Positions 9,539 through 50,681 are shown, numbered from the stretch's first letter. The stretch is DNA of 55,988 bases from a virus (IMGVR_UViG_3300042323_000878:1-55988); one strand, 5' to 3'. Notes: generated by a model from the letters alone, not told the origin. Made by a program: numbers and translations.

Positions 9539-9585
9539 AAGATGCTCCTGAGTGGTTTGAAAATAAATGCAAAAGTGGTTCATGA

Positions 9586-12057: not shown

Positions 12058-12210
12058 TCAGCAAGGGGTGCGAGAGTTCTTGGCGACTGCGCCGCCCTTG
12101 GCGTAGGCGTCCATTTTCTTGGCAGGTGCTGCGGATTTGCGCTTCATCTCGGGAGGGGCTTTGGCAGATTTGCTGTCTTGCATGAGCTTTTCGAACTTTT
12201 TGATGGCCAT
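12058..12210 (-). CDS. 50-aa Lys-rich peptide MAIKKFEKLMQ...MDAYAKGGAVAKNSRTPC
   Basis: Not in the track. AGGAG SD and upstream promoter; its stop abuts the portal GTG. Confidence 0.65.
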   Translation of the reverse strand: MAIKKFEKLMQDSKSAKAPPEMKRKSAAPAKKMDAYAKGGAVAKNSRTPC

Positions 12211-12238
12211 GGTGCGTGCTCCTGAATAAAGTGAGGGA

Positions 12239-12267
12239 ATTATAACTGAAAACCCGATTTATGCAAA
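12239..12267 (-). promoter_or_regulatory. Sigma70-like promoter (copy 3 of 4)
   Basis: TTTGCataaatcgggttttcagtTATAAT on the minus strand. Confidence 0.7.
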
Positions 12268-14340
12268 TTCTTTGCGCAAATTGGCCACTATTGCGTCGAT
12301 TTCTGACTCGTCGTAGTCGTTGGCTTGGACCAAGCCACCTGCTGCGTAGCCTTCTGGCGGCGCGAATGGTTCTGGCGGCGTGAACCGCTCTCCCGGTAGA
12401 GACTCAAGATAGTTGTCTAGTTCTGACTTAGGCACAAAACGGCCACCGAGCGCTTCCATGCGCTTGGGGAACCGCTGCAAATCCACCAACCCCGCATTCC
12501 CCAAGTCCCCCACATCTGACCACTGGCCTGAGCGCACAAAATCCTGCACAAAGGGCAGGTATTCCTCTTTCGGTGCGAGGTTGGCTTTGCCCTTGATTTG
12601 GGCGATGCGGTCGCCAATTTGCCGATCGGACAAAGACTTCTGCACCAAGACCTCAAACTCCTCGCGAGAGCCGTCAAAATCAGCCAACTGATCTCGAACG
12701 GAGTCTGGCAAATCAGCTTCTGTTAATTTCCTGCCCGGCAGCACCTCCACCGTCACATGTGGCTGACCTTTTGCGTCGCGCAAGGAGTAGATGCGGGAGC
12801 GACCTTCCATGACGTCTGGGCAATAGCCGCCGACGCAATGGCCCATGGTTTCGCCTTCGTACTTGAGGGCGTCTTCGAGGGCGGCTTCGTCGAGTGTGTC
12901 GTGAAGATGCGTGACAGCGTCTTTTTCAGACTTCAGGCCGGTGGTGATGTATTTGCCGGTTTCTTTGTCCATGATGGCGAACGTCTCTGCACTGGGCGTC
13001 GGTCGCACAATGGAGTATCGCTGCGGCACCTGCCAAGCGTCCCAGCCCCCTTCCGGCTCATTGCGCACTTTCAACTCCACCCAGCGCAGCCCCTTGTCGT
13101 TGGGGGTGTTGAGCCCAGGAATGGTCGCGTACTCTTTGTGCACGACAGACGCTGCGTTGTTGGCGCGCATCATGTCCGCCTCAGCCTTCTGCGCCGCGCG
13201 CCACTCGTTGATCTTTGCAACTCGCTCGACCGCCTGCGGCACAGTGACCTTGGGCAAGGATTCGTACTTCAGCAACAGCTCAGGCGGCAATCCAGACGCA
13301 GGGTTGGTGGCGTTGCGGAGTTCGTCGATGAGGTGGTTGAAGCCGAGGCGATTGGCAGAACGTCCTTCGAGGTCATCAAAAATAGAATGAACGATCGTCT
13401 CTGGCGGCACCTTGGCCAGCCACGGATTGCGAGAAACGGTTGTTGTGCCGTCTTCGCCTGTTGTAGCCATAAACCTGCGTGCGACATCGTTGTTGACAAT
13501 AAAATCCGACATGTTTTCCCAACCGCGTGCTTGCTCTGATGACGCCAAACCTTGAGCCGGGAATCCTGCATCGACGCGGTCTATCGTCAAAACTCGACGG
13601 CCAGTGCGCGCCTCGTCTCCAAAATCTTGATGCAACATCCCTCTCTCAGCGAGCGCGCGCACAGGATCTTCGGGCGTCGCCATTTCGTTCTTGATGTACT
13701 TGGCGAGGGTTTTGTCGATCCAGTTGTTGAGGGCGCTGTCGACAGGAGGCAACGGGGGCGCTTGAATAAAGTCGCGAGCTTCTTGCGTCGTCAATCCCGG
13801 ACGCGCGTTCATCAGTTGGCGCACGGCTTCTGCCTCTGGATCTCGACGCAACCCCCGCAACGAATCTTCCAACGACCCGGCGAGCCAGTTACCGCCCTTG
13901 TTCTTTACGACGTTGGAGGACGGCGCACCTGCAGCACGGACAAACTCGCGCGCACCGTGAGCGATTGCACCGGGTGCTTGCACCAGCGCACGCAACGGCG
14001 AACCTGGCCCGAAGTAATTGCCGCCGACCAACTTGGCCCCTTCTGTGACGGCCTTGCCCGCAGGAGTGGTGCTCACCGAGCGCAACGGCAGCATCGCCTC
14101 CATCGAGTCGCTCGTGGGGAAGAAAGGTGCGTCGTATTGGAACCCTTTGTCGCGGAGCCAGTTGACCGCTGATCCTCCGAACGACTCGATGTCGCCCGGT
14201 GCGCCCAAAGCCCCTGCGAGCAACCCTCGGATTGTCGCGACAGGCAAGTCCTTGGCCGCCTCGCGGTCGTTGTTGCGCTCCGGGCGGCGACCAGCAGAGC
14301 GATAGCCGATGTAGGGTTTGTTTTCGTCAGCCACAATCAC
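12259..14340 (-). CDS. Large protein with a PcfJ-like domain; putative virion-packaged accessory protein
   Basis: L..EG..MGHCVGGY...G...IYSLRD..G.PHVTVEV and AQIKGKAN are PcfJ-like motifs. YAAGGLV near the C-terminus. Confidence 0.65.
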   Translation of the reverse strand: MIVADENKPYIGYRSAGRRPERNNDREAAKDLPVATIRGLLAGALGAPGDIESFGGSAVNWLRDKGFQYDAPFFPTSDSMEAMLPLRSVSTTPAGKAVTEGAKLVGGNYFGPGSPLRALVQAPGAIAHGAREFVRAAGAPSSNVVKNKGGNWLAGSLEDSLRGLRRDPEAEAVRQLMNARPGLTTQEARDFIQAPPLPPVDSALNNWIDKTLAKYIKNEMATPEDPVRALAERGMLHQDFGDEARTGRRVLTIDRVDAGFPAQGLASSEQARGWENMSDFIVNNDVARRFMATTGEDGTTTVSRNPWLAKVPPETIVHSIFDDLEGRSANRLGFNHLIDELRNATNPASGLPPELLLKYESLPKVTVPQAVERVAKINEWRAAQKAEADMMRANNAASVVHKEYATIPGLNTPNDKGLRWVELKVRNEPEGGWDAWQVPQRYSIVRPTPSAETFAIMDKETGKYITTGLKSEKDAVTHLHDTLDEAALEDALKYEGETMGHCVGGYCPDVMEGRSRIYSLRDAKGQPHVTVEVLPGRKLTEADLPDSVRDQLADFDGSREEFEVLVQKSLSDRQIGDRIAQIKGKANLAPKEEYLPFVQDFVRSGQWSDVGDLGNAGLVDLQRFPKRMEALGGRFVPKSELDNYLESLPGERFTPPEPFAPPEGYAAGGLVQANDYDESEIDAIVANLRKEFA

Positions 14341-15586
14341 ACTCCTTCGCTTGAGCGAGTCCGCCGTGTTTGAATCCGACTTTGAATGGCAACAGCTCTA
14401 GGCGGCGGAACTCTTGGTTGCCTTTCAGCGGCCCATATTCGATCGTCTGGTTGCGCATGTATTCTGGCAGCAACCCTTCGCGAGCTTGCAGGTCATAAAA
14501 CTCACCCATAGTCTTCAAGTCCATTGCTTTTGCCTTGTCGTATACGCTGTCCGTCGGACGCGGCACGTACTCGATGCCGAGTTTCTTGACTGCTTTTTCT
14601 GTCGACAAAGATGGCTCGTAATTCAAATCATAAATCCGTCGCACGTGCTCTGGCGTCACGTCTCCATGAATCTGCGCTTCAACGTAGTCCATCGGGTCTC
14701 TGAGGCCCAACTTGTTTTTCAAGGACACAATGTCTTCAAGCGAATACAACTCAGACCGCATCATCGGTGAACCTTCCAGCTCTGTGAGCACACGGGGCAC
14801 TTGCCTAGCGAACCGAGGCGTGCCGCTGCCGTCTTGCAAAGGCTTCAGCCCGTATCGCTCCATGAGCTGAGCGAACTTGCTCGGCAAGCCTTGTTCGTTC
14901 AGCACCTTGGACAAATCGTGCTCGTCTCGACCGTACAGCATGCCCGCCTTTTGCAACCCCAACTTTTCTATCGCGTCTTTGCGGGCTTGGCTGTAGTGCT
15001 TGGCCAATTCATAAAGCATCGACCCCTCAGCCACCGAGTCGTGATAAGGATTGCCCCCTCGCAACACCTCGTCTGCTGTGGCAAAGTTGCCTTTTGTCCT
15101 GTCGAGAGAATCATCGAACGTGATCGTTGTGCGCGCTCGGTGCTCAGGGTGCAACTCTAGTGCGTACTGGCCGTATTGCGGGATGGTGCTTTGGGGAGCG
15201 AGATAGCCTGAGCCTCGGTCAGGGTAGCGCGGGGAGAAGTAATTCTTGGTCGTGGCGAACGGATCCTCTGTCAAGTACCCGTAAGTTTGCCCCTTGTCTG
15301 CGAACATCTCTGGCTCAGCAGCGCTGCGAGCTTCGATCGAGCGTTTTGCACCAGAAGAAGCGCCTGTGCGCTTGGATTCGTGCACGCTCTTGAGTCGCCC
15401 CTCCTTCAGGTCTGTGAGCGATTTGCGACGAACGAGCACTTGTGCTTCGTTGATTGCGCGCAACTCTTCTGGGTTCAATGTGCGCGTGACCAACTCTCCC
15501 GTAGGCGAGCGCGTGGAGGCTTGCAACAGTGCGGCGAGCCTTTGTTCTGCGGCTTGGGCCTTGGCAATCAGATTAAGGATGCTCAT
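14327..15586 (-). CDS. DUF3626-like protein (possible ADP-ribosyltransferase fold)
   Basis: YGYL...QYG...LEL....R.RTTITFDDS and YVEAQIHG.V motifs. C-terminal FKHGGLA. Confidence 0.55.
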   Translation of the reverse strand: MSILNLIAKAQAAEQRLAALLQASTRSPTGELVTRTLNPEELRAINEAQVLVRRKSLTDLKEGRLKSVHESKRTGASSGAKRSIEARSAAEPEMFADKGQTYGYLTEDPFATTKNYFSPRYPDRGSGYLAPQSTIPQYGQYALELHPEHRARTTITFDDSLDRTKGNFATADEVLRGGNPYHDSVAEGSMLYELAKHYSQARKDAIEKLGLQKAGMLYGRDEHDLSKVLNEQGLPSKFAQLMERYGLKPLQDGSGTPRFARQVPRVLTELEGSPMMRSELYSLEDIVSLKNKLGLRDPMDYVEAQIHGDVTPEHVRRIYDLNYEPSLSTEKAVKKLGIEYVPRPTDSVYDKAKAMDLKTMGEFYDLQAREGLLPEYMRNQTIEYGPLKGNQEFRRLELLPFKVGFKHGGLAQAKECDCG

Positions 15587-17163
15587 GCTGCATACGGGTT
15601 GGCATATTGATGCTTGGGCTTGCGGCGATGTTCGACAACATCCTCAGCCACTTGCAGCTCAAACCAGTGCTCGTTCTTGAGGTAGATGATGGCCTGGCTG
15701 AACGTGTCGACGTAGTCATCATGCTCAGCAACAGGGAACTTGGCGAGTTGCTTCAAGAACGGTTGCGCCCAGCTCACGAACTGTCCAGGGTTTTTTGTCG
15801 ACTCTGGTATCCATAGCACATCCATTTCCAAGGTAGGTGCGGCTTGGTGGGCACGAGCAACTTTGTCCGCGTTTCCTGGATTGTAACCTATGACCGGAAC
15901 CCGTGCCAACCTTAAGTCTTGGATCAGTGACTGACCACTCGCTTTGGCTTCCACAAGGATACGATCAGGCCTTCTTGGCTTAGTGGGTTGGCCTTTGTGT
16001 GCACCCTTAGACCCGCCATACTCTGCCGTCCAGTCATCTACCGCCTTCTTGCGCAAATCAGGGTAACCGAGATGATCATCCCAAGCGTCCAGCAACATCG
16101 CATTGCGCACCCCTTTGCGAGTAAACATACCCCAAACAGTACACGCGGTTGGATCGCCTGATGACTTCTCAGTGAACGCACAATCGTAAGACTGCAACAC
16201 GAACTCCAGTTGTGGCATTGGGTCTGCCGCTGGCCAGCGTTGGAAATGTTTTACACGCAGCAAAGTGGCTTCAGTTGGCACAGGATTTTGTTGCAACTGG
16301 CCTGCAGAGCCGTACTCACCAAGCAACTGCTTAAGGTCAGTCAACTCTTTGGGTCCAAAGCGCTCAGGGCAGATGAGTTCGTCTTTAACTTTGCGTGGAT
16401 CGTATGGGCCAAGCGAGGTCTTGCGATGCTCACCGTCCCACTCAGCAGGGATGCAGATGTGTTCCCAACCGCCAAGGTCTTCAAGGATGTGACCAGAGAC
16501 GTCCTTTTCATGCAGTCGCTGCATGACCACAACCATTGCGTCGGCCTTCGGGTTGTTGAGTCGTGTGCTCCAAACCACATCAAACCATTCTAGAGTTGAT
16601 GTGCGTAAAGCATCAGACTGGGCTTCCTGAGCTGAGTGTGGGTCGTCAAGCAGCAGCCTTGACCCACCTTCGCCTGTTGCTGTACCACCCACAGAAGTTG
16701 CCATTCGGTATCCGGTCTTGTCATTCTCAAACCTGCTTTTTTGGTTTTGATCGCCGGACAGAGCAAACATTGAACCCCAACGCTCTTGGTACCAAGGGGA
16801 TTGGATCAGCCGCCGTGTCTTCAGGTTGTCACGGATTGATAGGTTGCCGGCGTACGACGAGCAAAGATACTTCTGTTGAGGGTCTGTAAGCCACTCCCAT
16901 GCAGGGAACATAACGGAAACGATCGTGGACTTGGAGTGGCGAGGAGGAATGTTGATCAACAAGCGGCGCAGTTCGCCGCTCGCTATGGCTTCAAGGTGCT
17001 CACAAATGACTTCGATATGCCAGGACGGAATAAACGGGATTCCAGGCTCAACAACGTGCCAACTCTGCTTTACAAACTCATAGAGGTTTGACTCAGCTCT
17101 GCGTTTATCACGCTCAAAGCGGATAAGCTCGAGCATGGCGGCAGGGCTAAGACTGCCTCCCAT
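15583..17163 (-). CDS. terL: Terminase large subunit
   Basis: INIPPRHSKS Walker A, LLLDDPH Walker B, QSYDCAF, VEAKASG and HDDYVD nuclease motifs. Confidence 0.95.
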   Translation of the reverse strand: MGGSLSPAAMLELIRFERDKRRAESNLYEFVKQSWHVVEPGIPFIPSWHIEVICEHLEAIASGELRRLLINIPPRHSKSTIVSVMFPAWEWLTDPQQKYLCSSYAGNLSIRDNLKTRRLIQSPWYQERWGSMFALSGDQNQKSRFENDKTGYRMATSVGGTATGEGGSRLLLDDPHSAQEAQSDALRTSTLEWFDVVWSTRLNNPKADAMVVVMQRLHEKDVSGHILEDLGGWEHICIPAEWDGEHRKTSLGPYDPRKVKDELICPERFGPKELTDLKQLLGEYGSAGQLQQNPVPTEATLLRVKHFQRWPAADPMPQLEFVLQSYDCAFTEKSSGDPTACTVWGMFTRKGVRNAMLLDAWDDHLGYPDLRKKAVDDWTAEYGGSKGAHKGQPTKPRRPDRILVEAKASGQSLIQDLRLARVPVIGYNPGNADKVARAHQAAPTLEMDVLWIPESTKNPGQFVSWAQPFLKQLAKFPVAEHDDYVDTFSQAIIYLKNEHWFELQVAEDVVEHRRKPKHQYANPYAA

Positions 17164-26259: not shown

Positions 26260-27123
26260 ATGGAAAGCAGGATCATGGGCCTTGTCAAAGCCATGCACGA
26301 AAAGTTTGGTTTAGCTAATGCTGTAGGCCCGATTAGTTTACAAAAAGAAGAAAAAGAATTCCGCATTGCCGCGATGCAAGAAGAACTTAACGAGTACGCT
26401 GAAGCGGAAACATCAGTCGACCAATATGACGCTCTTTTGGATCTTATCGTCTTCGCTGTAGGCACACTCGAGCGTCATGGCTTTCCATTGCTTGAAGGTT
26501 TTGAAGAAGTTATAAAGTGTAACATGGCCAAGGAGTTAGGCCAGAATGGTAAAAAGCGTGGTGGCTTTAAGCGTGATTTAGTCAAGCCTGCAGGTTGGAC
26601 CGGCCCTGAAGAAAAGCTTATGGACATACTCGTCAAAGCCAGTGTTGCAGCCGCCCCAAAGCCGCGTATGAGTCCTTTTTGCGTTGCACAATCGCCAAAA
26701 GAAATAGCCCCTTCCGTTGCACAATCGCCAAAAGAAATAGCCCCTTCCGTTGCACAATCGCCAAAAGAAATAGCCCCTTCTTCTGATGGAACAATTCAAC
26801 CGGGCTTTGCTCCGAAGTTTGATGCTACAAAGGTGCGTGTCGACCTACTCCCTGTCGGCCCCATGTTGCAGATTGCCGAAGTATTTACATTTGGCGCAAA
26901 AAAGTATTTTGCCGATTCGTATCGGCAAGGAGAAACCGTTGCGTGGTCGCGTACTTATGGGTCGATTATGCGCCACATGATGTCTTTTTGGAATGGCGAG
27001 GACAAGGACCCTGAGAGTCATTTATCTCATTTGGCGCATGCAGGTACTCAATTGTGTATTTTGATGGAGCACTCAACCTACAACAAAGACAAAGATGACC
27101 GTTTTGTAAGGGGCCAATCGTGA
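26260..27123 (+). CDS. MazG/PRA-PH-like NTP pyrophosphohydrolase fused to a DUF5664 (dATP/dGTP diphosphohydrolase N-terminal) domain
   Basis: EEL.EY...DAL.DL..F..G...EV..CNMAK...DLVKP.GW..P (MazG-like), then K.D..K...DLLP...V..FGA.KY...RH...W.GED.DPES.L.HLAHA. AAGGAG SD before ATG 26260. Confidence 0.85.
   Translation: MESRIMGLVKAMHEKFGLANAVGPISLQKEEKEFRIAAMQEELNEYAEAETSVDQYDALLDLIVFAVGTLERHGFPLLEGFEEVIKCNMAKELGQNGKKRGGFKRDLVKPAGWTGPEEKLMDILVKASVAAAPKPRMSPFCVAQSPKEIAPSVAQSPKEIAPSVAQSPKEIAPSSDGTIQPGFAPKFDATKVRVDLLPVGPMLQIAEVFTFGAKKYFADSYRQGETVAWSRTYGSIMRHMMSFWNGEDKDPESHLSHLAHAGTQLCILMEHSTYNKDKDDRFVRGQS
26682..26780 (+). repeat. 3 x 33-bp perfect tandem repeat encoding a VAQSPKEIAPS linker
   Basis: cgttgcacaatcgccaaaagaaatagccccttc at 26682, 26715 and 26748. 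Confidence 0.95.
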
Positions 27124-27767
27124 ACGTAACAAGCATCAGGCAGATATTTGTTAATAAGCTTGCCAATGAAGACTTTGCCGATGATGGCAATCTGGAGATT
27201 GTCAACGCCTCGTTTATCGCCGATGCGTCTTTGATCTTTGGCACTGTAAACGATGAATGGAACGGCAGAGAGCTCGAGTGGTACCTGAGCCAGTCTCTCA
27301 ACGTGAATAGCATTAGGCCTCCGGTGCCTGTTGTTTGGAAAAATGTTGCTACAAAAGACGGGCGCATAAACAGCAACTATGGTTGGTGTATTTTTAGCCG
27401 AGAAAATGGGTATCAGTTCCATAAAGCAATTGACGCGTTGGTTGCTAATAAAGCAAGTCGCCAAGCAGTCATGGTTTACATCCGGCCGTCGATGCATGAA
27501 GACTCTAAAGCCGACGGGATGCGTGACTTCATGTGCACCTACTCAACCCAGTTACTTATTCGTGGTGACCAATTGCACATGATTGTTAACATGCGGTCAA
27601 ATGACGCAATCTACGGATTTAAAGGAGACAGGTTTTGGCAAAGTACAGTCCTTGACTATAGTTTGATCAGATTGAAACAAACGTACCCAGAACTTGTCAG
27701 AGGCAACCTTTACTGGAATGCTGGCAGCTTGCACATCTACCCTCGTCACTTTGGTTTAGTTGAATGA
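27120..27767 (+). CDS. dCMP hydroxymethylase (T4 gp42-like, thymidylate synthase fold)
   Basis: Motifs recalled from T4 gp42: ASF.AD...IFG..N, RELEWY.S.SL, INSNYGW.I, RPSM..D...DGM.DFMCT (catalytic Cys), VNMRSND...GF..D (Asp at the dCMP-specificity site), WN.GSLH.Y.RHF.LV. Confidence 0.9.
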   Translation: MNVTSIRQIFVNKLANEDFADDGNLEIVNASFIADASLIFGTVNDEWNGRELEWYLSQSLNVNSIRPPVPVVWKNVATKDGRINSNYGWCIFSRENGYQFHKAIDALVANKASRQAVMVYIRPSMHEDSKADGMRDFMCTYSTQLLIRGDQLHMIVNMRSNDAIYGFKGDRFWQSTVLDYSLIRLKQTYPELVRGNLYWNAGSLHIYPRHFGLVE

Positions 27768-28723
27768 TTTACAACCCATTCACCAATATACCTAAGCAGC
27801 CTAGGTCCCATGTGCGTGGCTGGGCGCTGCATTGGGCCGAATGCCTAGGCACTACAGTTGCCGGACTTGACAGCCGGCTCGATGACCACTCTACTATCTA
27901 CATTGAACATGGAGTCAACTTTGGTGGAGTGCTTAACTTGTTTGGCGGAGTAACGGGGCAATTGGTTGATCGGTTAGATGAGTTGGTTAACTATAAAGGT
28001 AACTTAGTCAGCCTAGACTGGCCAATGCCAAACTATGCACATCAACTAAGTCTACGAATAGGCCAAGCAACATGTTCACCTAGACTGACACAAACTCTTT
28101 TGGATGCATTAGAAGAAAGATTAACGCGGTCAATCACACTGACCCAACGCGATTTGTCAGTTGACCACGTAACTATTGGTGACAGTCACTCAACTGCTTT
28201 TGCACCTGTACAATCTAGCGTCTTACGTACAAACGGGCTTACTTTACACGGGGCACTTCAAAAAGGCCACTTTATTGGGCAAATGGGCCGCTTGGTTCAT
28301 CAACCAAAGCGCGTAACTTTGGCCTGTGGATCAATAGACATCCGACACCATATAGGCCGTCAGGCAGACCCTAAGCAGGCACTTTTAGGGTTATGTGGCA
28401 ACTATTCAGACCTAGCTGACTTTTTGGCAGATGAGTATGGCGTTGAGGTTGAAATAGCGACCCCGGTGCCAGTGGAATGGGAAGGTAGAAAGATACCACA
28501 AACAGGGTTTTATAAGAAGGAGCCATTTAGCGGCACACAAGCCCAAAGGCGCGAATGGACTCAAATGTTCATTGACAAAATGTGTGAGCACGGGCTAATT
28601 AGCCCGCCTCAAGGCTGGTATTCAATGGATGGCAAAGAGTACGCAGACACCTACATGGAGCCTAACTCTTCGGTGCACATTGCACCGCCTTTTTATCGTA
28701 GAAATGATTGGGGACAACTATGA
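27764..28723 (+). CDS. SGNH/GDSL-fold hydrolase or acyltransferase-like protein in the modification operon
   Basis: IGDSHS (block I-like), GSIDIRHH (block III-like) and C-terminal SSVH (block V-like His). ATGA-coupled on both sides. Confidence 0.6.
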   Translation: MIYNPFTNIPKQPRSHVRGWALHWAECLGTTVAGLDSRLDDHSTIYIEHGVNFGGVLNLFGGVTGQLVDRLDELVNYKGNLVSLDWPMPNYAHQLSLRIGQATCSPRLTQTLLDALEERLTRSITLTQRDLSVDHVTIGDSHSTAFAPVQSSVLRTNGLTLHGALQKGHFIGQMGRLVHQPKRVTLACGSIDIRHHIGRQADPKQALLGLCGNYSDLADFLADEYGVEVEIATPVPVEWEGRKIPQTGFYKKEPFSGTQAQRREWTQMFIDKMCEHGLISPPQGWYSMDGKEYADTYMEPNSSVHIAPPFYRRNDWGQL

Positions 28724-29634
28724 GTCTATTTACCATCACGACTGACAAGTCAAATAAAGACATTCCTGATGGCATGGACATCGTACAGGCTAAGCAACAC
28801 TATGTCGCTATGCGCAAAGGTTTTGTCTCTAAGCTAAGTCCTGCGGTAGTTAAAAGATATGAGGGCAAGTGGGTATTTCGTGGCGATGTAAGTGCGAGTA
28901 GTTTGAAAGGTTATGGGGCTGAGCAGTTAATAGCTGAATGCAAAGAAGAAGTGCTTGTTTATTGCGCGCCTAGGGTAGGGATGGCTATGGACGCAATTGC
29001 TACATTGGCCAAGCTTTACGGTAAGCGTTGTGTTTTCTTTTGCCCAGCTTCTAGCGAAGCATCAATGCACCAAAAAGCGTTGCTTGCCTATGGTGCCGAC
29101 TTACGCTTCATCAAGATTGCAGCCATGCCAACACTTAATAGTTATGCAAAAAAGTGGGCCGATAAACATGGTGCAAAGTATCTTCCATTTGGCCTGGCCA
29201 AAACACCCTCAGTCACAGCAGGCATCATCAACTTGGCCGATCAAATGAAAATTGTGCCGAGTGAGATATGGATGTCAGTCTCTACCGGGACCGCAATCCG
29301 GGCCCTACAGATTGCCTGGCCAGGAGCAGCGTGTAAAGGGGTTGTTGTGGCTCGCAACATGCATGATGGTGAAATAGGTCAAGCCATGTTGTGGTCATCA
29401 TCACAGCCATTCTTAAAAGACGTTCCCGTGGCTCATAGGCCTCCCTTTCCATCGACATCAAATTACGATGCAAAATGCTGGCAAGATTTTGATGCATTTG
29501 CTGCCCCGGATGCAATCTTCATCAATGTAGGAACAGACGATAAGGTGTTGGAGATGTATAAGCAGGTAGCCAACGTGCCGCTAAAAAGCCAGCGCGAATG
29601 GCATGACCTACGTGATTTGGAGCGTGGGCTATGA
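28720..29634 (+). CDS. PLP-dependent enzyme, fold type II (tryptophan synthase beta / ACC deaminase-like)
   Basis: V.R.D.....LK (putative Schiff-base Lys), YGA.L, LPFG, SVSTGT phosphate loop, YDAK and FINVG. Confidence 0.8.
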   Translation: MSLFTITTDKSNKDIPDGMDIVQAKQHYVAMRKGFVSKLSPAVVKRYEGKWVFRGDVSASSLKGYGAEQLIAECKEEVLVYCAPRVGMAMDAIATLAKLYGKRCVFFCPASSEASMHQKALLAYGADLRFIKIAAMPTLNSYAKKWADKHGAKYLPFGLAKTPSVTAGIINLADQMKIVPSEIWMSVSTGTAIRALQIAWPGAACKGVVVARNMHDGEIGQAMLWSSSQPFLKDVPVAHRPPFPSTSNYDAKCWQDFDAFAAPDAIFINVGTDDKVLEMYKQVANVPLKSQREWHDLRDLERGL

Positions 29635-30767
29635 GAATAGAAACCACGGCCTATTATGATGAAATGGTTCGTTATGCAGCCATGGCAAAAACTCAACAAG
29701 CAGAGTGTAACTTAGGCACAATCCCGCACATGGAAGGATCAGTCAAGGATGATCTAATGCGCCATGTTGAGCTTTATGACGTGGTCAATCGCAAATACGC
29801 CGGCTTTACACAAATTGTACTTGACCTTTGGTACAACACATCGCCTGACCATCCTTACGCCCATAAGCTGCACTCTGTCAGAAAACCGATATGTAATTCG
29901 TTTCAAGGAGTTGAGAATGAGTGGTGTTTAGCTGAATGGCTTTATGTCTTTATCGTACATCGAGTCACAGGCAGCGGCATCAACTACGCCAAAAAACCGA
30001 GTGGCTATAACAACACTATTTTGCCTAAGTTTGCATCTTGTGGCAGCATCGATCAAATGGTTCAAGTCATTAAGGGTCGTGGTCCAGAATCGATTTACAC
30101 TTCTGTTGGTTATCAATTTCCGGCATTCCCTAAGAAGGTAGACGGGTACAGACTCGGCGGTGATTACTTCCTTTGTGCCTATGCACCTCAACTTGCCCGT
30201 GAAATGTCAGAATGGTTAAACTGTGGCACAAAGCATGACTTGCGCGACGTTGGCGAGTGGATGTTTGAATGGAATAAAAAGCAAGGGCTTAGGGCTTACA
30301 AATTCCAGTACGCGGCAGTCGTTAGTGATATAGCCGACTTTTTTCCCCGATATGTCAACCCGCATAGCCTGTTTTTCTATGGCACTAACGCAGTCGAGTG
30401 TTTGAAGTACGCAGCTAAGCCCTTAAGTAAAGGTAGTGAGCAAGAATTTCTAGACGAGGTATCTATGCGTTTTAGTAACGACATCGGGTCTACAGCCTAC
30501 GACGGGGAAGATATTTTTTGCGATGGAATTCGCTGGATAGAAAACTATGTACGCCCTGGCCATGACTATCAACATGTCGACAGAGATAGAGTTTGGAATA
30601 GTAGCAATATCGTAGACCACCCTTATGGCCGCCAGAAGGCAATGCTGCATCATGGCTTGATCGACTCGTTTAACAAGTTGACTGTCCACCCATCAGATGA
30701 CTACGTACTTAAGCAGGCAGGGATGAGCAAAGACCAATATACACTTAAAGTGCATGGCTTGGACTGA
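29631..30767 (+). CDS. aGPT-Pplase / amino acid:DNA transferase-like protein (HhH glycosylase-related)
   Basis: Ordered motifs D.L....LYDVVNR, F....VVSD.A, YG.NA..CL and D.ED..CD..R follow the aGPT-Pplase clade 1 pattern. Operon context supports the call. Confidence 0.6.
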   Translation: MRIETTAYYDEMVRYAAMAKTQQAECNLGTIPHMEGSVKDDLMRHVELYDVVNRKYAGFTQIVLDLWYNTSPDHPYAHKLHSVRKPICNSFQGVENEWCLAEWLYVFIVHRVTGSGINYAKKPSGYNNTILPKFASCGSIDQMVQVIKGRGPESIYTSVGYQFPAFPKKVDGYRLGGDYFLCAYAPQLAREMSEWLNCGTKHDLRDVGEWMFEWNKKQGLRAYKFQYAAVVSDIADFFPRYVNPHSLFFYGTNAVECLKYAAKPLSKGSEQEFLDEVSMRFSNDIGSTAYDGEDIFCDGIRWIENYVRPGHDYQHVDRDRVWNSSNIVDHPYGRQKAMLHHGLIDSFNKLTVHPSDDYVLKQAGMSKDQYTLKVHGLD

Positions 30768-30960
30768 CAAAAGAGGACGCTTAGTTTGCGGTTGTGGTGG
30801 TTATCACTTTCCACACAGAAAAAGAAGTCTTCGATGCTGGTATCATCCAAATGCTGAATACTTAGCAATGAGACGTCAAGGTATGGACCACATGGAAGCG
30901 ATGATTGAGTTGATATGGCATAGTGACAAAAAGCCATCAAACGATCCTTGCCCCTTCTAA
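30754..30960 (+). CDS. Small Cys/His-rich (probably Zn-binding) protein
   Basis: CGCGGYHFPHR..S..C..HP; overlaps the upstream gene. Confidence 0.6.
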   Translation: MAWTDKRGRLVCGCGGYHFPHRKRSLRCWYHPNAEYLAMRRQGMDHMEAMIELIWHSDKKPSNDPCPF

Positions 30961-30981
30961 ATACATTGTACAATTAAATTT

Positions 30982-31410
30982 ATGACTAGACCGACCCTCG
31001 ACCAGACCTATATGGAAGTTGCACGAGCATTTGCCAAACGTGCAACTTGTAGCAGAAGGCAGGTAGGTGCCGTCATTACCGGAAAAGGCTACATACTGAG
31101 CTCCGGCTATAACGGATCTTATCCTGGTTCTGTTCATTGTATAGACTCACCATGCGCAGGCTCAGGTCTGCCTAGTGGTACAGGTCTTGATAGCTGTATG
31201 AGCGCCCACGCAGAACAAAATGCTATTGCCAGGTTAAAAGACTTTGATGGTGCAGATACGTTGTACGCTACGACTTCTCCCTGCATTTCGTGTACAAAAT
31301 TGATTCTTTGTACGAATATTCGTCGCATCGTTGCTGATCAAAATTACCCGCAAAGCGGAAAGGAATTGTGGCTAAGTGCCGGCCGAGTGTGGGTCAACTA
31401 TGCGGACTAA
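30982..31410 (+). CDS. dCMP deaminase
   Basis: RATC.RRQVGAVI, GYNG, HAEQNAI and PCISC Zn motifs. Confidence 0.95.
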   Translation: MTRPTLDQTYMEVARAFAKRATCSRRQVGAVITGKGYILSSGYNGSYPGSVHCIDSPCAGSGLPSGTGLDSCMSAHAEQNAIARLKDFDGADTLYATTSPCISCTKLILCTNIRRIVADQNYPQSGKELWLSAGRVWVNYAD

Positions 31411-33184
31411 AGCAGTATTTGACATTGAGTGCTATACTAACTATTTCCTTATAGCAGTTAAGTCACTAGCAAACAATAAGCATGTTTTGTTTGAACGCTC
31501 AGATTGGACAGACTTTGACGTTGAACAGCTTAAGGGCCTTCTTAGCAAGTACACCATCATCACGTTTAACGGTAATCGGTACGACATTCAGCTCCTTAAG
31601 TACGCTATTAGTGGTGCCACCGCGACACAACTAAAAGTACTTTCTGACGACATAATTGTAAACGATCTTCGTTCATGGGTTGCTGAGTCCAAGTACAACT
31701 TGCCTAGGTGTCAGTACCTAGACCACATCGATTTGATTGAAGTTGCACCTGGTAAAGCTTCATTGAAGATTTATGGAGGTAGACTGCATAGCAGAAGAAT
31801 GCAAGATTTGCCTATAGAACCAAATGCAATTATAACTGACGACCAAAGGGCTTTACTCAGCGCGTACTGTCTAAACGACCTTGACACAACAATCGACCTT
31901 TACAATCGACTTAAGGGTCAAATAGAACTACGCGAGCAAATGGGTAAAGAGTATGGTATCGACCTACGCTCAAAGTCTGATGCACAGATAGCCGAGGCCG
32001 TGATAAAAAAACAGATTGAGGCGATCAAAGGGGACCGAGTCTATCGGCCTGACTTGCCTAAAAACTACTCGTTTAAGTATGTTGCACCCTCGTTCATACA
32101 GTTTAGCGATCCACAACTTAAACATGCACTAAACGTATTTGAAACACACCCTTTTACACTTGACGAAAAAGGCGACGTCGCTGAGCCTGAAGAGGTCGGC
32201 AAGCTTAAGATCAAACTTGGTCGCAGCGAGTACCAACTAGGCATTGGGGGCATTCATTCTTGCGAGAAGAAAGTCCACTATGTAGCTGACCAAGACCACT
32301 TACTCATAGATCGTGATGTCACGAGCTACTATCCAAACATCATTTTGAGTCAAAGGCTTTTTCCTAAGCACATTGGGCCTGAATTCCTGACCGTATATAA
32401 AGGGCTTGTCGATCGGCGCGTTAAGGCTAAGCGCGATGGTGACAAAGTGACTAATGAGGCACTTAAGGTGACGATAAATGGATCCTTTGGCAAGTTTGGA
32501 AGCCGGTGGTCGGCCCTTTACGGTCCAAACCTGTTGATTCAAACAACCGTGACAGGCCAGCTCAGTTTGCTTATGTTGATAGAGGCTCTTGAAGAGGCAG
32601 GCATACAGGTTGTGAGTGCCAATACTGACGGCATCGTGATCTATTGCCACAAGCGCAACCAAGCGGTCCTAAATCAAACAATTGTTGCTTGGGAAGAGGC
32701 AACCGGCTTTACCACAGAAGAGACCAGCTATACTGCACTCTACTCCCGTGACATTAACAACTACCTGGCGCTCAAGCCAGGGGGAAGCTATAAGGCCAAA
32801 GGGACATACGCTGATGCGGACTTGTCTAAAACCCCTACTGCTCAGATATGCACCCAAGCGGTTGTGGATTATCTACAGCTAGGTATACCGATTCAAACGA
32901 CCATTCACTCTTGCCAGGACATTCGTCAGTTTGTGTCTGTCAGGTCTGTCACCGGCGGGGCTGTCAAAGGGGATAAATACTTAGGCAAAGCGGTACGTTG
33001 GTACTATGCAAAAGGAGAGAAAGGTGCCATTAACTACAAGAAAAATGGCAACAAGGTTGCTATGACCGATGGAGCAAAGCCACTAATGCTGCTGACTGAC
33101 ACTTTGCCAGAAGACCTCGACTATGAATGGTATGTGGCAAAAACCATGTCTATACTTAAAGATTTGGGGGTTGTTACAAAATAG
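31400..33184 (+). CDS. Family B DNA polymerase with 3'-5' exonuclease
   Basis: FDIECY, FNG.RYD and YC.ND exonuclease motifs; DVTSYYP, K...NG.FGK.G and ANTDG polymerase B motifs. Confidence 0.9.
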   Translation: MRTKAVFDIECYTNYFLIAVKSLANNKHVLFERSDWTDFDVEQLKGLLSKYTIITFNGNRYDIQLLKYAISGATATQLKVLSDDIIVNDLRSWVAESKYNLPRCQYLDHIDLIEVAPGKASLKIYGGRLHSRRMQDLPIEPNAIITDDQRALLSAYCLNDLDTTIDLYNRLKGQIELREQMGKEYGIDLRSKSDAQIAEAVIKKQIEAIKGDRVYRPDLPKNYSFKYVAPSFIQFSDPQLKHALNVFETHPFTLDEKGDVAEPEEVGKLKIKLGRSEYQLGIGGIHSCEKKVHYVADQDHLLIDRDVTSYYPNIILSQRLFPKHIGPEFLTVYKGLVDRRVKAKRDGDKVTNEALKVTINGSFGKFGSRWSALYGPNLLIQTTVTGQLSLLMLIEALEEAGIQVVSANTDGIVIYCHKRNQAVLNQTIVAWEEATGFTTEETSYTALYSRDINNYLALKPGGSYKAKGTYADADLSKTPTAQICTQAVVDYLQLGIPIQTTIHSCQDIRQFVSVRSVTGGAVKGDKYLGKAVRWYYAKGEKGAINYKKNGNKVAMTDGAKPLMLLTDTLPEDLDYEWYVAKTMSILKDLGVVTK

Positions 33185-34313: not shown

Positions 34314-34823
34314 ATGAAAACACCACACCCACAAGGCGGAATAAGTTATTACGGAGCAGGACAACAAGGCAAAGTTCAACCTGACTTGCATACCCCTTGC
34401 TTGCATCAGATGAATTCGGGAATTGGTGAACCCAAAGGAACAACCACACAGGAACAAACAAAGGCAATCATGAAAACACCACACCAATCGAATTCAACAC
34501 ATGGCCTCAAACCGTGCCCATTTTGCGGAGGGGATGCAGAGCATCAAAAAGATGATTTGCGGCATGGATACGATGAATACGAGCGGGAAGAAACCTATCA
34601 CTTTATAAAATGCAAAAATTGTGGCTCATCCTCTGGCCGACTTCACCAAAAGCACCTGTGCGATTTCACGAAATACACGGTGCGAGATTTCCGCGAAAAC
34701 CCGATTCTCAGGGCCAAAGTGGAAGACGAATATAGCGCCTACTGTGAGCAGTTGAAGCAGCTTTCTATTGACGCATGGAACTTGCGTACTGCCATTACCA
34801 AAGCAACTGGTGGTGCAGTATGA
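34314..34823 (+). CDS. Lar-like (restriction alleviation) Zn-ribbon protein
   Basis: LKPCPFCGG...C..CG...AWN.R. Second possible start at 34470. Confidence 0.65.
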   Translation: MKTPHPQGGISYYGAGQQGKVQPDLHTPCLHQMNSGIGEPKGTTTQEQTKAIMKTPHQSNSTHGLKPCPFCGGDAEHQKDDLRHGYDEYEREETYHFIKCKNCGSSSGRLHQKHLCDFTKYTVRDFRENPILRAKVEDEYSAYCEQLKQLSIDAWNLRTAITKATGGAV

Positions 34824-41734: not shown

Positions 41735-43708
41735 TCACTTCAAGGTCTTGAGGTAATCCTCTATGCCCATAGAGCCAGAGTCGACCGGTGCGCTCGCAGC
41801 GTCGTCAATGCTTTCTTGAGGGGCTTCGGTTCCTTGCGGGGACGGCCAGACCGCAGACGCGGCCCCAGTCGTCAGTCCTCGTTCTGTCGCCCCTGCCGCA
41901 AACGCTTTTGGTCCAGCGCCAGCAGCTTGCTCTTCAAGCAACTTGACGACCGCAGCGACGTCTTTCGGGCTTTTAGACATCAGCATCTCAGAGAGCTTGT
42001 CTGCTGTTTGTTCGCTCATAGAAGCGTTGCGCGTTGCGCGGCTCGCCAAGTTGGTGAGCGAATTCCAAAAGCCTCCCGATATCGCATCTGCCACAGCGCT
42101 GCCGATGCCTTGCCCTTCTTCGAACTGCTTTTGCATCTCAATCCGTTGGCCAGTTTGCGAGCCGCCTAGGATGCGGTTAGATTGATTGAACAATTGCGAC
42201 TCGCGCTCCAGCGCTGACTTGAACAAGTTGAATTGCGCAGGGTTGTCGAACAAAGGTTGCAACTTGGCTTGCATCTCGGGAGAGCCGATGATCCGTTGAG
42301 CCGCGTTCATGTTGCCCGATGGGCCCATGATTTTGCCGTACAAGTCTCGAGACACCCCTGTGCGGAAAGCTTCTTTTTCTGCAGGGCCCATGCCTTTAAC
42401 TAAGTTGACGACCTGCTCATGGTCCAGCTTGTTGAAGTCGTTCATCCCTTTGCGCAAAGCATCAATCACCTCCATGTCGCCTGCGTAAGCTTGTCGTGCA
42501 AATTGGTAAGCCGGGACATTCTCGTCGATGGCGTTCACAAAAACCTTGCGCAAGTCGCGCAAAGCGCTGGCCTCTGCCGTGCTCATGCCTTTGCCTTTGT
42601 AAGCGTCGTCGATGGTCGCGTCGATGCCGCGCTTGATGTAATCCAGTGTGCGCACGTCTGGTGTCTGGACAGATTCCACGATTGTGTTGCCTGCCCGGTC
42701 TTTGCCTAGCTTGTAGATCTCAGGCAGCATATATTTTGCCGGGTCTTGCCCACTGAGCTTTGCCGCCATGGCTTCTTTGTTGGCGATTGCTTTTGCTTTT
42801 TCGAAGAACCCCGCAAACTCAGGGTCTTGAAGCACTTGCATGATCCGAGGGTCGTCGACTGCGCCGTGCGCGTATGCGTCGTCGTAGACGGTTTTTGCTC
42901 CTGCGCGCAGCTCAGAAACCAGTCGTTGCTCGTCGTCGTAGAAGTTGCCGGGCTTGAGCGCGGCGGCGACTTGCTGGTGAGTGCGTTCCTTGGCTCCGAG
43001 CTTTTGGTCTGTCAGCGCTTTTTCTATCCGCAAAGAACCGGCCCCAGACCTTTGTGCGACGGTTTCTGCGAGCTTGGCTGTGCCGGGGGAGGTGTTGGCA
43101 ACAACCGAAGGCACGCGCATCGAGGTGTCTTGCCGCATCATCTTTTCAATTTGCTGAGGGGTTGCGCCGGTTTGCGCGAGGGCGGTGTTGAGCTTGCCGG
43201 CAGCGCGGTTGGCGATGAATCCCTCTGTCGGAGCCAACCGCTCCCGCAACCACGTCGCTCCTGCACTAGCGCCTCGCACCACGGGAGCCGCTGCTGCGCC
43301 CATAGCACCACCCAAGGCAGCGCCCGAAGCCGCTCCAGTGCCCCGTTGGCCTTCGGTCGCTGTGCCTGCACCGGAGACGCCGCCAGCCAGTGCGCCCAAC
43401 CCGCCCAACTTCGCTGCAGCAATTGCTGACGTCCTGCTGAGTTGATTCACACCGAGCGCTTGTCCGCCCGGCACCATCATCATCGCAATTCCCGGAGCCG
43501 CGCCGCCCACGAATTCAGAAGCTCCGGAGGTGAATGGGTAGTTCTTGGCGTAATCTCCATACTCAGAGCGGATCTTGGCGACATTTTCTTCGTATGTGCC
43601 TTGTCCGAGCTTGGACCGCAACCAAGCTTCCGCCTCGTCGCCCCAACCCATGCCGAGTCCTTGCCCAAGAACGGCACGAGCTGTGTTTTTGCCAAAGTCT
43701 GCCATCAC
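41735..43708 (-). CDS. Putative DNA ejection / internal virion protein
   Basis: 657 aa, Ala/Gly-rich N-terminus (QGL..GWGDE) and LDY.KRGID...GSQT motifs seen in podovirus injection proteins. Confidence 0.65.
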   Translation of the reverse strand: MMADFGKNTARAVLGQGLGMGWGDEAEAWLRSKLGQGTYEENVAKIRSEYGDYAKNYPFTSGASEFVGGAAPGIAMMMVPGGQALGVNQLSRTSAIAAAKLGGLGALAGGVSGAGTATEGQRGTGAASGAALGGAMGAAAAPVVRGASAGATWLRERLAPTEGFIANRAAGKLNTALAQTGATPQQIEKMMRQDTSMRVPSVVANTSPGTAKLAETVAQRSGAGSLRIEKALTDQKLGAKERTHQQVAAALKPGNFYDDEQRLVSELRAGAKTVYDDAYAHGAVDDPRIMQVLQDPEFAGFFEKAKAIANKEAMAAKLSGQDPAKYMLPEIYKLGKDRAGNTIVESVQTPDVRTLDYIKRGIDATIDDAYKGKGMSTAEASALRDLRKVFVNAIDENVPAYQFARQAYAGDMEVIDALRKGMNDFNKLDHEQVVNLVKGMGPAEKEAFRTGVSRDLYGKIMGPSGNMNAAQRIIGSPEMQAKLQPLFDNPAQFNLFKSALERESQLFNQSNRILGGSQTGQRIEMQKQFEEGQGIGSAVADAISGGFWNSLTNLASRATRNASMSEQTADKLSEMLMSKSPKDVAAVVKLLEEQAAGAGPKAFAAGATERGLTTGAASAVWPSPQGTEAPQESIDDAASAPVDSGSMGIEDYLKTLK

Positions 43709-44934
43709 TCTGCCTCCTCAGACTGGGCAGGGCTTGTGTCGCGGTAAACACCTGCGCTGACGTCCGATAAACGCTTGGCCGCGCGAGCGCGAGAAGTCTT
43801 GAGTGCTTTGTATGCGTTGGCCATGATGGCTTTGCGCTCTTCTATTGTTTTTGCTTCCAAACCTTGCACAGCCATGAGCGCCTTGCGTTCGTCGTTGGAA
43901 ATTGCTCCGGGGAAGGTCTCTTTCAACTGAGACAAAGCCGCTTTTTGCAACAAATTTTCCATCGTGCGAGTGTTTTCGAGCTTTTTGTCTTTGGACCCAA
44001 CAGCTTCCAGCGCGACGCGTTGTGCTTTGTCGACAAGAGAGGCGTCGAACGTGTTGGGGTTAAGCCGGAAAGCCTGATCCAAGCCGACCAGCGCCTGATC
44101 GACTTGCGCGACATGGTCTTCCGTTTCTCTTTTCAGCTGCACTTCTTTGGGTGTCAGTTTTTTGCTTGCCTCTTGCTGCGCCGTCATTTTTTCTTTGTTC
44201 AGCGCGAGCGTTTGTCCGGCAATTCCCGTCATCATGGCCTTGTACCAGTCGCCTTTTTCTAGGTTAGCCTTTATGTCTTTTTCCACAAAGGCATTGTACT
44301 CAGGTGTTCCGGGTTTCAAGCCGCTGTCTGCTGCACGCTTGCCAGAGTCTGACTGAGGTTTGCCAGACGCAAGGTATTGTTCCATCATCTTCACTTCGCG
44401 CGCGCGGTTGTCACGCATTTCTTCGCTCGCCAAGGTACGCACGGTGGCGAGGTCTGTGTTCGCCGCGTCTACCCGGTTTTTCGCGCCTGCTATGCCTAGT
44501 TGCATCTTGGCCGCGCGGTCTGCCGACTGAGCCGCGCGCTCTTCTTTCTTGAACTCTGCCATCGACCCTGCCGCGCCAGCCAAGCTCTCGCTGAACGCGC
44601 CTGTCCTTGTCGGTGCGCCGAACGCTGCTGCCAGCCGAAAGTACATCTCAGCCTTGGACGGGCCGTTGCCGGGTTGATTGAGGGCTTGCGTAATCATGTT
44701 GTTGAACGAGTCTGTTTCTTTTTTTGCAGCTTCACGAGCAGACCGGACTTCGCCGCCATAGTCGTTGGTGCGCGGTTGGGCCATGTAAGCCTGAAACATT
44801 GCACGGATGTCGGGTGCAGCGACAGGCGCGCCTTTGGGCGCGGCGGCCACTTCCTGTCGCTGCATAATCACGATGTCTGACGGCTTTGCGCCAGTCATGT
44901 CGTATTTTTCTGCCAATTGCTCGAAATCTTCCAT
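43705..44934 (-). CDS. Putative DNA ejection / internal virion protein
   Basis: 409 aa, helical, GAISN.E motif, in the ejection-protein block. Confidence 0.6.
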   Translation of the reverse strand: MEDFEQLAEKYDMTGAKPSDIVIMQRQEVAAAPKGAPVAAPDIRAMFQAYMAQPRTNDYGGEVRSAREAAKKETDSFNNMITQALNQPGNGPSKAEMYFRLAAAFGAPTRTGAFSESLAGAAGSMAEFKKEERAAQSADRAAKMQLGIAGAKNRVDAANTDLATVRTLASEEMRDNRAREVKMMEQYLASGKPQSDSGKRAADSGLKPGTPEYNAFVEKDIKANLEKGDWYKAMMTGIAGQTLALNKEKMTAQQEASKKLTPKEVQLKRETEDHVAQVDQALVGLDQAFRLNPNTFDASLVDKAQRVALEAVGSKDKKLENTRTMENLLQKAALSQLKETFPGAISNDERKALMAVQGLEAKTIEERKAIMANAYKALKTSRARAAKRLSDVSAGVYRDTSPAQSEEAE

Positions 44935-44946
44935 GGTGGATCCTTT

Positions 44947-50679: not shown

Positions 50680-50681
50680 GC

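Follow-up and report, generated by a model that had tools for sequence, protein, structure and literature searches.

The uncultured virus genome IMGVR_UViG_3300042323_000878, analysed here over its full 55,988 bp (the window; completeness 100% by CheckV, classed as linear), carries at 26260-31410 an operon that couples a predicted deoxycytidine monophosphate (dCMP) hydroxymethylase to enzymes of the kind known from thymidine hypermodification. We lean, though not strongly, towards the view that 5-hydroxymethylcytosine (hmC, 5hmC) is made before replication and then tailored on DNA to an amino-acid-derived adduct by the products of open reading frames (ORFs) 3 and 5 acting together and by that of ORF4. 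By sequence and fold, the operon encodes a dCMP-type hydroxymethylase, a pyrophosphohydrolase, a dCMP deaminase, a pyridoxal phosphate (PLP) enzyme of the M6 gp52 type, an SGNH-fold protein and an aGPT-Pplase-fold protein. The amino-acid-derived hypermodifications of DNA known to date start from 5-hydroxymethyldeoxyuridine (5-hmdU) and depend on a DNA kinase, while the known derivatives of hmC carry sugars or carbamoyl; what the module suggests is an amino-acid-type adduct on cytosine, with the hydroxymethyl group activated in another way.

ORF2 has the residue signature of a 5-hydroxymethyl-dCMP synthase

ORF2 (27120-27767, + strand) contains the Pfam domain Thymidylat_synt and matches the T4 dCMP hydroxymethylase (PDB 1b49) over residues 14-214 with E 4.2e-57, while its best thymidylate synthase (TS) match reaches only 1e-7. 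Its segments RELEWY, DFMCT and MRSNDAIYGFKGD line up with RELEWY, DFMCT and MRSNDVVFGFRND of T4, so that the catalytic Cys (in DFMCT; E. coli C146, T4 C148) and Glu (in RELEWY) are aligned with those of the T4 enzyme. GFKGD aligns with T4 GFRND and places Asp at the position of E. coli N177 and T4 D179 (N177D). Moreover, DFMC has Asp three residues before the Cys (L143D), and D169 is retained in RSND. According to the available part of PMC13326640, in E. coli ThyA numbering N177D marks a dCMP substrate, L143D/E a hydroxymethyl rather than a methyl product, and D169N (Asn) the 5-hydroxy-dCMP synthases. Because L143D and N177D are present and D169 is kept, the signature is that of the 5-hydroxymethyl-dCMP (5hm-dCMP) type. 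The two other possibilities, a 5-hydroxy-dCMP synthase or a dCMP methylase, were rejected in view of the retained D169 and the presence of L143D. By family assignment ORF2 is thus a deoxycytidylate 5-hydroxymethyltransferase (5hm-dCMP synthase) of the T4 gp42 type, with an activity predicted from its sequence. An earlier note on this DNA had described a TS-fold enzyme like T4 gp42 with an Asp indicative of dCMP, and the 1b49 match, N177D and the L143D/D169 signature bear this out.

The signature extends to related loci. We scanned IMG/VR with an ORF5 alignment (583 confirmed stretches, 80 loci kept; gene presence scored by tblastn at E ≤ 1e-5) and, in a second scan, with proteins in which SGNH and ORF5 parts are fused (298 confirmed stretches, 80 loci kept). 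Among the TS homologs from the ORF5-seeded scan, Asp177 and Asp169 are found in 45/45 (44 loci and the window) and Asp143 in all 43 that could be scored. A gp42-like gene is present in 20/80 loci of the fusion-seeded scan, and each of the 20 has the same residues. No dUMP-type TS homolog was seen beside the module among these 64 loci and the window; the coupling to a dCMP-type enzyme suggested by the earlier note is therefore universal among the TS homologs next to the module in this set.

These residues also bear on whether the operon is an ordinary thymidine (5-hmdU) hypermodification cluster, with the TS homolog acting on dUMP supplied by the adjacent dCMP deaminase. A dCMP deaminase does follow the cluster, as in M6-type phages, and the combination of a PLP enzyme with an aGPT-Pplase-type fold is known from T-hypermodification. 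We nevertheless regard this explanation as highly improbable: Asp stands at N177, the gp42 match is ~50 orders of magnitude better than that to any thymidylate synthase, Asp177 is present in all 65 TS homologs examined (window included), no 5-hmdU DNA kinase (5-HMUDK) was found in the genome, and T4 likewise has a dCMP deaminase beside hmC synthesis.

ORF4 is a homolog of the M6 gp52 decarboxylase

ORF4 (28720-29634, +; alternative start 28708) is a fold-type II (PALP) PLP enzyme. It matches phrog_7093 (‘threonine dehydratase’) with E 2.4e-45, a PHROG that M6 gp52 also matches (E 2.2e-159). At the position of M6 K36, the residue of the internal aldimine, Lys is kept in 54/54 proteins (M6 gp52 and 53 members of the ORF4 family), and an S-x-S-x-GT loop and a C-terminal PFP..YD.K.W motif are common to the family and M6 gp52. 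Other scores are lower: Pfam PALP gives 18.2 bits, below the cut-off of 35 (M6 gp52 itself, 39.5), and direct BLASTP between ORF4 and M6 gp52 is weak (E 0.002). Judged by the shared PHROG and the conserved Lys, ORF4 and M6 gp52, a decarboxylase of thymidine hypermodification, are true homologs, in line with the earlier assignment of a PLP enzyme of this type. The available text of PMC8989533 shows that M6 gp52 and ViI gp226 depend on PLP and decarboxylate amino acids that are already linked to DNA bases. Hence, ORF4 is probably a decarboxylase or tailoring enzyme for a base-attached amino acid.

The only tblastn matches of ORF4 in cultured phages are Erythrobacter phage vB_EliS_R6L gp1 (L002) and Microcystis phage Mae-JY30 (L003, 6031-6741), at 30-34% identity. 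Both genes are annotated ‘DNA modification methylase’ and one adjoins ParB/sulfiredoxin genes, which suggests that the PLP-fold domain is used in other DNA-modification contexts too.

ORF5 has a predicted aGPT-Pplase-type fold

ORF5 (29631-30767, +) encodes an all-helical protein resembling helix-hairpin-helix (HhH) glycosylases. Within the module this gene is conserved best, its family comprising 869 clusters at E ≤ 0.001, mostly 55-84% identical. The AlphaFold2 (AF2) model has a pLDDT of 87.1. Its best match among 48,161 PDB representatives is PaMx11 gp46/PUGT (8z2m_A; Z 9.0, rmsd 4.2, 208 aligned), followed by the queuine salvage enzyme DUF2419 (Z 7.6) and then HhH-type DNA glycosylases; with matches less than 1 Z apart counted as ties, PUGT and DUF2419 differ by 1.4. 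PUGT is a structurally solved 5-phosphomethyl-dU glycinyltransferase, for which the available part of PMC11472151 gives D24, K97, W146, K150, F173, D175, E243 and C247 as DNA/glycine-binding residues. In BFVD, 10 of the top 15 matches are named ADDT, Pplase1 or 5-hmdU DNA kinase (helical domain). The ADDT-named matches have E 1.5e-32 (52% identity) and 1.3e-4, and the 52%-identical relative is called ‘Amino acid:DNA transferase domain-containing’ by its source; matches to PhiW-14, SP10, phiRSL1 and other HMUDK proteins have probabilities of 0.84-1.00 with weak E-values of 0.02-0.4. In a protein-language-model atlas, the neighbours of ORF5 are viral clusters with 11-36% HMUDK_hel members and 12% ADDT members.

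Sequence-based and stricter structural searches gave little. Foldseek of the model against PDB returned nothing at E ≤ 0.001, ORF5 has no Pfam or PHROG match, and a PDB sequence search gave 0 matches at E ≤ 10. Among 61 diverse ORF5 relatives, one matches ADDT (E 0.00099) and one HMUDK_hel (E 0.01), and these families rank first and third among the 23 weak Pfam families listed for the 61. On its predicted structure, ORF5 shares the two-lobed, glycosylase-like helical fold of PUGT and belongs to the aGPT-Pplase (ADDT/HMUDK_hel) structural superfamily. We suggest that it acts on 5hmC in DNA as a base-flipping transferase or as a DNA-targeting subunit.

The DUF2419 match raises another possibility, namely that tailoring takes place on free nucleotides before replication, with ORF3-5 finishing 5hm-dCMP and ORF5 working in the manner of the nucleotide-binding Qng1/DUF2419. 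DUF2419 is the second PDB match (Z 7.6 against 9.0 for PUGT), all genes lie in a nucleotide-metabolism and replication block beside the polymerase, and there is no DNA kinase. However, the structures nearest to ORF5 act on DNA (PUGT, helical domains of 5-hmdU DNA kinases, HhH glycosylases), as do PLP enzymes of the M6 gp52 type. Moreover, in the available parts of PMC8989533 and PMC13326640, characterised pyrimidine hypermodifications of this kind are all finished after replication. Tailoring before replication is thus quite unlikely.

ORF3 is an SGNH-fold protein and is fused to ORF5 in other viruses

ORF3 (27764-28723, +) consists of a conserved N-terminal domain (~1-130) and an SGNH-fold domain (~130-318). 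The AF2 model (pLDDT 90.2) matches SGNH esterases with a Foldseek probability of 1.00 and VIA Z 12-13 over ~130-318. SGNH enzymes have Ser in block I (GDS), Asn in block III (oxyanion hole), and Asp and His in block V. In ORF3, the GDSHS motif (G139 D140 S141 H142) and the C-terminal H305 are invariant in 31 sequences. With the alignment register set by eye, GSIDIRHH of ORF3 corresponds to GNIDIRHH in fused relatives, and three residues ahead of H305 there is Ser instead of Asp. ORF3 is a putative acyl-transfer or esterase partner of ORF5.

In other viruses the two are joined in one protein. When 1.84 billion representatives were searched exhaustively with an ORF5 hidden Markov model (HMM), 169 matched, and 7 of the 150 listed are 639-790-residue proteins with an ORF3-like N-terminus and an ORF5-like C-terminus. 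The N-termini match the ORF3 family (BLASTP 1e-32 to 1e-62) and have GDSHS and GNIDIRHH intact. Locus L107 likewise has a 786-aa ORF fusing ORF3-like and ORF5-like parts. A word-index search for longer, fused forms of ORF5 found none, and the fusions surfaced only in the exhaustive HMM search. Their layout of helical plus catalytic domain is that of 5-hmdU DNA kinases, with SGNH replacing the P-loop kinase domain. The kinase itself is split as gp54/gp55 in M6 and fused in the 637-aa SP10 kinase.

ORF3 relatives also occur in other company. In Aeromonas phage 25 the homolog is next to UDP-galactopyranose mutase (Pfam GLF, E 3e-54), and in locus L100 a relative is next to a homolog of inositol-3-phosphate synthase (PDB 1gr0, E 1.9e-79). 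The gene set at L100 (5226-11181), also found at L109, consists of a gp42-like gene (Asp177), two small ORFs, one resembling dUTPase by eye, SGNH and the inositol-3-phosphate synthase homolog, while ORF5 and PLP genes are missing; the set may be the signature of hmC linked to a cyclitol.

The module is conserved on very different phage backbones

Among the 80 ORF5-seeded loci, a PLP gene is present in 54, SGNH in 51, a gp42-like gene in 45, MazG in 32 and a deaminase in 16. Four gene orders recur. The order of the window (type I) is MazG-gp42-SGNH-PLP-ORF5-deaminase. Type II is T4-like, with gp45/gp44 clamp genes nearby, and reads DUF1599-gp42-(deaminase)-small UDG-like protein-ORF5-(fam1)-PLP-SGNH (UDG, uracil-DNA glycosylase). 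Type III (~21/80 loci) reads HhH-GPD protein-ORF5-fam12-fam1, with convergent glycosyl- and methyltransferase genes adjoining. The fourth order, SGNH-ORF5-PLP-gp42, was found in 11/80 fusion-seeded loci; it is complete in 10, while L116 ends at a contig edge after PLP.

Several small proteins accompany these layouts. In T4-like modules, a 141-residue protein (L061, 6589-7014; 33/80 loci) lies between the gp42-like gene and ORF5 and has a weak match to the uracil-DNA-glycosylase superfamily (Pfam UDG E 0.0011, below cut-off). At L036 (5869-9713) and ~20 like loci, fam12 is a protein of 186 aa, and convergent methyltransferase/HtrL and glycosyltransferase genes adjoin. The protein fam1 (334 aa, no Pfam match) is a partner of ORF5 in 56/80 loci.

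The neighbourhoods help to weigh two further explanations. The virus might have plain 5hmC, or 5hmC bearing a small acyl group (e.g. O-acetyl added by SGNH), with ORF4 and ORF5 serving salvage, repair or regulation. Consistent with this, only the pre-replicative genes are firmly assigned to families, the SGNH fold matches O-acetyl esterases/transferases best, nine loci of the fusion-seeded set with the order gp42.. SGNH lack ORF5 and PLP, and no activating kinase was found. On the other hand, ORF4 and ORF5 overlap within the operon, and modules containing both adjoin gp42-like genes on very different phage backbones; the nearest characterised relatives of ORF4 act on DNA-attached amino acids, and in other viruses ORF5 and the SGNH protein form one polypeptide. 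We therefore consider plain or acylated 5hmC unlikely.

Alternatively, the group on hmC could be a sugar, a polyol or another host metabolite that is not an amino acid, with ORF3 and ORF5 as an unconventional transferase and ORF4 making or editing the donor. ORF3 relatives do stand beside UDP-galactopyranose mutase, a sodium:solute symporter and the inositol-3-phosphate synthase homolog, T4-like modules adjoin phrog_1574, a protein with faint glycosyltransferase-like Pfam matches, and type III ORF5 loci abut glycosyltransferase genes. This sits poorly with the window, where Pfam and PHROG scans recognised no glycosyltransferase or sugar-nucleotide gene, and with ORF4, which groups with decarboxylases of base-linked amino acids and not with sugar aminotransferases. 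A sugar or polyol thus appears distinctly improbable.

Proposed pathway

The route we favour, with tailoring on DNA to an amino-acid-derived adduct, would run as follows. ORF1 would convert dCTP to dCMP, in a role like that of T4 gp56 that both supplies dCMP and excludes dCTP, and ORF2 would convert dCMP to 5-hydroxymethyl-dCMP. Like T4 cd, the ORF7 deaminase would provide the dUMP from which dTMP is made while dCMP is drawn off, and would so keep dTTP synthesis fed. The modified nucleotide would be phosphorylated by some further enzyme and built into DNA by the phage polymerase; ORF8 would have to accept the modified dNTP. After replication, ORF5, flipping the base, and ORF3 would jointly derivatise the 5-CH2OH group with no phosphate intermediate. 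The amino acid:DNA transferases known so far require 5-phosphomethyl-dU, the product of 5-HMUDK. Since the SGNH protein occupies the place of the kinase in 5-hmdU systems, the hydroxyl is probably acylated or aminoacylated, or else an amino acid is put on with no phosphate as leaving group. ORF4 would next act on the attached amino acid and most likely decarboxylate it, so that cytosine ends up with a side chain that bears an amine. The virion DNA would thereby be shielded from restriction enzymes and other nucleases. More tentatively, and with less than even confidence, we propose that a kinase-independent ORF3-ORF5 machine working by acyl or aminoacyl transfer, together with the gp52-type PLP enzyme, would generate the first amino-acid-derived hypermodified cytosine, and that other donor pathways would draw on the same SGNH core, as its inositol-phosphate synthase and UDP-galactopyranose mutase neighbours hint.

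A number of observations speak against this route. At the sequence level, ADDT (PF18724; aGPT-Pplase clade 2/3) and HMUDK_hel (PF18723; clade 1) have 0 matches at E ≤ 10 in six frames of the genome, and 0/31 close ORF5 relatives match either family. In hhalign, the ORF5 family and its wider family align with ADDT (an alignment of M6 gp51 and 8 phage homologs) at probabilities of 3% and 1.3%, and with M6 gp55 at 0.5% and 5.4%. The structural Z of 9.0 is modest for a helical protein. Because the sequence tests fail, we place ORF5 in the structural superfamily and do not file it in the ADDT or HMUDK_hel Pfam family; the earlier description of ORF5 as aGPT-Pplase-like stands for the fold (PUGT, 10 of the top 15 BFVD matches) and falls for sequence membership. 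Within 7 kb of ORF5, type III loci lack all three of the gp42-like, PLP and SGNH genes, and the sugar and cyclitol genes beside ORF3 relatives imply that the SGNH part is not tied to amino-acid chemistry. As for the missing steps, PF18748 (5-HMUDK) has 0 matches at E ≤ 10 in the genome and Pfam/PHROG scans revealed no other kinase either, so that the activation step is a guess; nor did Pfam/PHROG scans of picked ORFs recognise a deoxynucleoside monophosphate kinase in the role of T4 gp1. Many ORFs of the genome have no family match at all, which leaves room for an unrecognised glycosyltransferase or kinase. Finally, tblastn with ORF5 and a distant relative gave no match in 50,697 GenBank phage records, so that no cultured phage there carries the family.

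The lack of a recognised glycosyltransferase had been pointed out before, and Pfam and PHROG scans of picked ORFs across the rest of this CheckV-100% genome likewise found none. Outside GenBank phages, a search of 185,579 species genomes gave seven full-length ORF5 matches and one weak partial match; all 8 loci lie on contigs of metagenome-assembled genomes from unrelated phyla, and none in isolate genomes. Compared as DNA with the phage collection, the whole region gave a match only over 150 bases in gp42 genes.

Operon layout and remaining genes

The operon lies inside a plus-strand replication/nucleotide block (~21.8-40.7 kb, 45-50% G+C), beside the polymerase; the minus-strand structural genes have 55-58% G+C. 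The G+C step is sharp between 1-17000 and 42000-55988 (structural/packaging) on one side and 17000-42000 (replication/modification) on the other, compatible with a mosaic origin of the two halves. Successive + strand ORFs overlap by 4-14 bases, and with such stop/start overlaps the genes look translationally coupled. A promoter and terminator scan gave counts within the range of shuffled sequences and nothing above them. ORF coordinates and domain calls agree with the run of overlapping genes, followed by dCMP deaminase and DNA polymerase, that had been noticed earlier.

ORF1 (26260-27123, +; alternative start 26221) is a two-domain nucleotide pyrophosphohydrolase by Pfam and PHROG. Its N-terminus is MazG/PRA-PH (25.9 bits, cut-off 21.3) and its C-terminus dGTP_diPhyd_N, the former DUF5664 (92.6 bits, cut-off 27; E 1.6e-26). 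With both domains found, in the order MazG then DUF5664, it classes as a MazG/all-alpha nucleoside triphosphate (NTP) pyrophosphohydrolase with dGTP_diPhyd_N (MazZ-like). It also matches PHROG families of dATP/dGTP and nucleotide pyrophosphohydrolases, and the putative NTP pyrophosphohydrolase PDB 3nl9 (E 2e-4). A perfect tandem repeat of 33 bp × 3.0 (26682-26780, +; TRF score 198, 100% matches) codes for three copies of an 11-residue unit in the linker from MazG to DUF5664, and its copy number may vary among relatives.

ORF6 (30754-30960, +) encodes a small Cys/His-rich protein (phrog_17384, E 3.3e-6). The earlier note had counted it within the cluster; with a homolog in 1/80 related ORF5 loci (tblastn), it is not conserved there and is outside the module. 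ORF7 (30982-31410, +) is a dCMP deaminase (Pfam dCMP_cyt_deam_1 E 2.1e-19; MafB19-deam E 1.1e-9), and a deaminase adjoins the module in 16/80 ORF5 loci. ORF8 (31376-33184, +) is a DNA polymerase (phrog_1252, E 2.9e-200). Downstream of the polymerase, 34314-34823 encodes a Lar-like restriction alleviation protein (Pfam Lar_restr_allev E 1.2e-8; phrog_599), which would be a second anti-restriction device of the same genome.

Novelty and significance

Our literature search, limited to one library of papers, found no amino-acid- or polyamine-type cytosine adduct and no account of this gene set; the systems it did bring up were the sugar, carbamoyl, carboxymethyl and thymidine ones already known. 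Most likely, the enzyme set is not yet described for cytosine, while phage pyrimidine hypermodification on a hydroxymethyl base made by a TS homolog is itself known. The module is common in environmental viromes (583 confirmed IMG/VR stretches for ORF5, 298 for the ORF3 type) and absent from cultured phages, which would explain why the base has never been seen. If the proposed pathway is correct, the bases of natural DNA would gain a new member and DNA-modifying enzymes a new group, of interest where epigenetic sequencing tools have to discriminate 5hmC. Phage DNA that evades restriction and CRISPR would gain a new class, which may also bias metagenomic library preparation. Re-use of the SGNH core would, in that case, mean that uncultured phages harbour a widespread, modular family of cytosine hypermodifications that has so far gone unseen.

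Comparison with known systems

The pre-replicative half of the module resembles the T-even hmC pathway (gp56, gp42, gp1, cd and glucosyltransferases). The gp42 homolog has an identical catalytic signature, an all-alpha NTP pyrophosphohydrolase and a dCMP deaminase stand alongside, and here too hmC is probably made as a nucleotide before replication. In contrast to the T-even phages, no glucosyltransferase or gp1-type kinase was detected in the window, and the tailoring genes are of the SGNH, PLP and aGPT-Pplase types. The backbone also differs, this being a 56-kb non-T4 phage; T4-like metagenomic phages with gp45/gp44 neighbours carry the same module.

The tailoring half resembles the thymidine systems of M6, ViI and PaMx11, which comprise a dUMP hydroxymethylase, 5-HMUDK, ADDT/aGPT-Pplase, a PLP decarboxylase, and radical SAM or flavin enzymes. 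ORF4 has the PHROG and Lys of M6 gp52, the fold of ORF5 is nearest to PaMx11 gp46/PUGT, and in each case a hydroxymethylpyrimidine made by a TS homolog would be tailored afterwards. However, the base here is predicted to be C and not U/T, there is no match to the HMUDK kinase, HMUDK_hel or ADDT Pfam families, and the SGNH protein, a core partner here, has no counterpart in the annotated M6 cluster. According to the available text of PMC8989533, the metagenome survey of thymidine hypermodification published there took 5-HMUDK as its seed, and so would have missed this module.

A non-sugar derivative of 5hmC, 5-carbamoyloxymethylcytosine, is already known from metaviromes through MetaGPA (PMC8670742, available in part); the statement in the earlier note that T4-type hmC is normally glycosylated was thus too narrow. 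In the available part of that paper, TS(Asp177), PRA-PH and dCMP deaminase/MafB19 co-occur specifically on cytosine-modified metavirome contigs, the same Pfam trio as in our operon, and again in uncultured phages. A single carbamoyltransferase does the tailoring there, whereas a three-protein set with PLP chemistry is found here. In 5-hydroxycytosine arabinosylation (RB69, DLP3), the available description (PMC13326640) gives a TS homolog that also has N177D and an acidic residue 143. The 5ho-dCMP synthases of those phages have Asn169; ORF2 and all 64 neighbours keep Asp, and arabinosyltransferases are lacking in the window.

Aeromonas T4-like phages offer a further comparison. Petrov et al. 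2010 (PMC2993671) report, in the part available, that these phages have genes 42 and 56 and no glucosyltransferase. Phages 44RR2.8t, 31 and 25 encode ORF3 homologs (26-33% identity over 98% of ORF3) and have no ORF5 or ORF4 homolog. In 44RR (L001, 5992-8379, ORF233c) and UP87 (L095, 1956-4373), the ORF3 homolog carries a fused C-terminal domain of 465 residues that weakly resembles HMUDK_hel (E 0.0036 and 6.6e-4, both below cut-off), and hhalign and hmmsearch found no relation between this domain and ORF5. The fused gene adjoins a sodium:solute symporter, while the phage 25 homolog (L094), which stands beside the mutase gene, is unfused. The Aeromonas phages with ORF3 homologs are cultured, hence their DNA is open to analysis.

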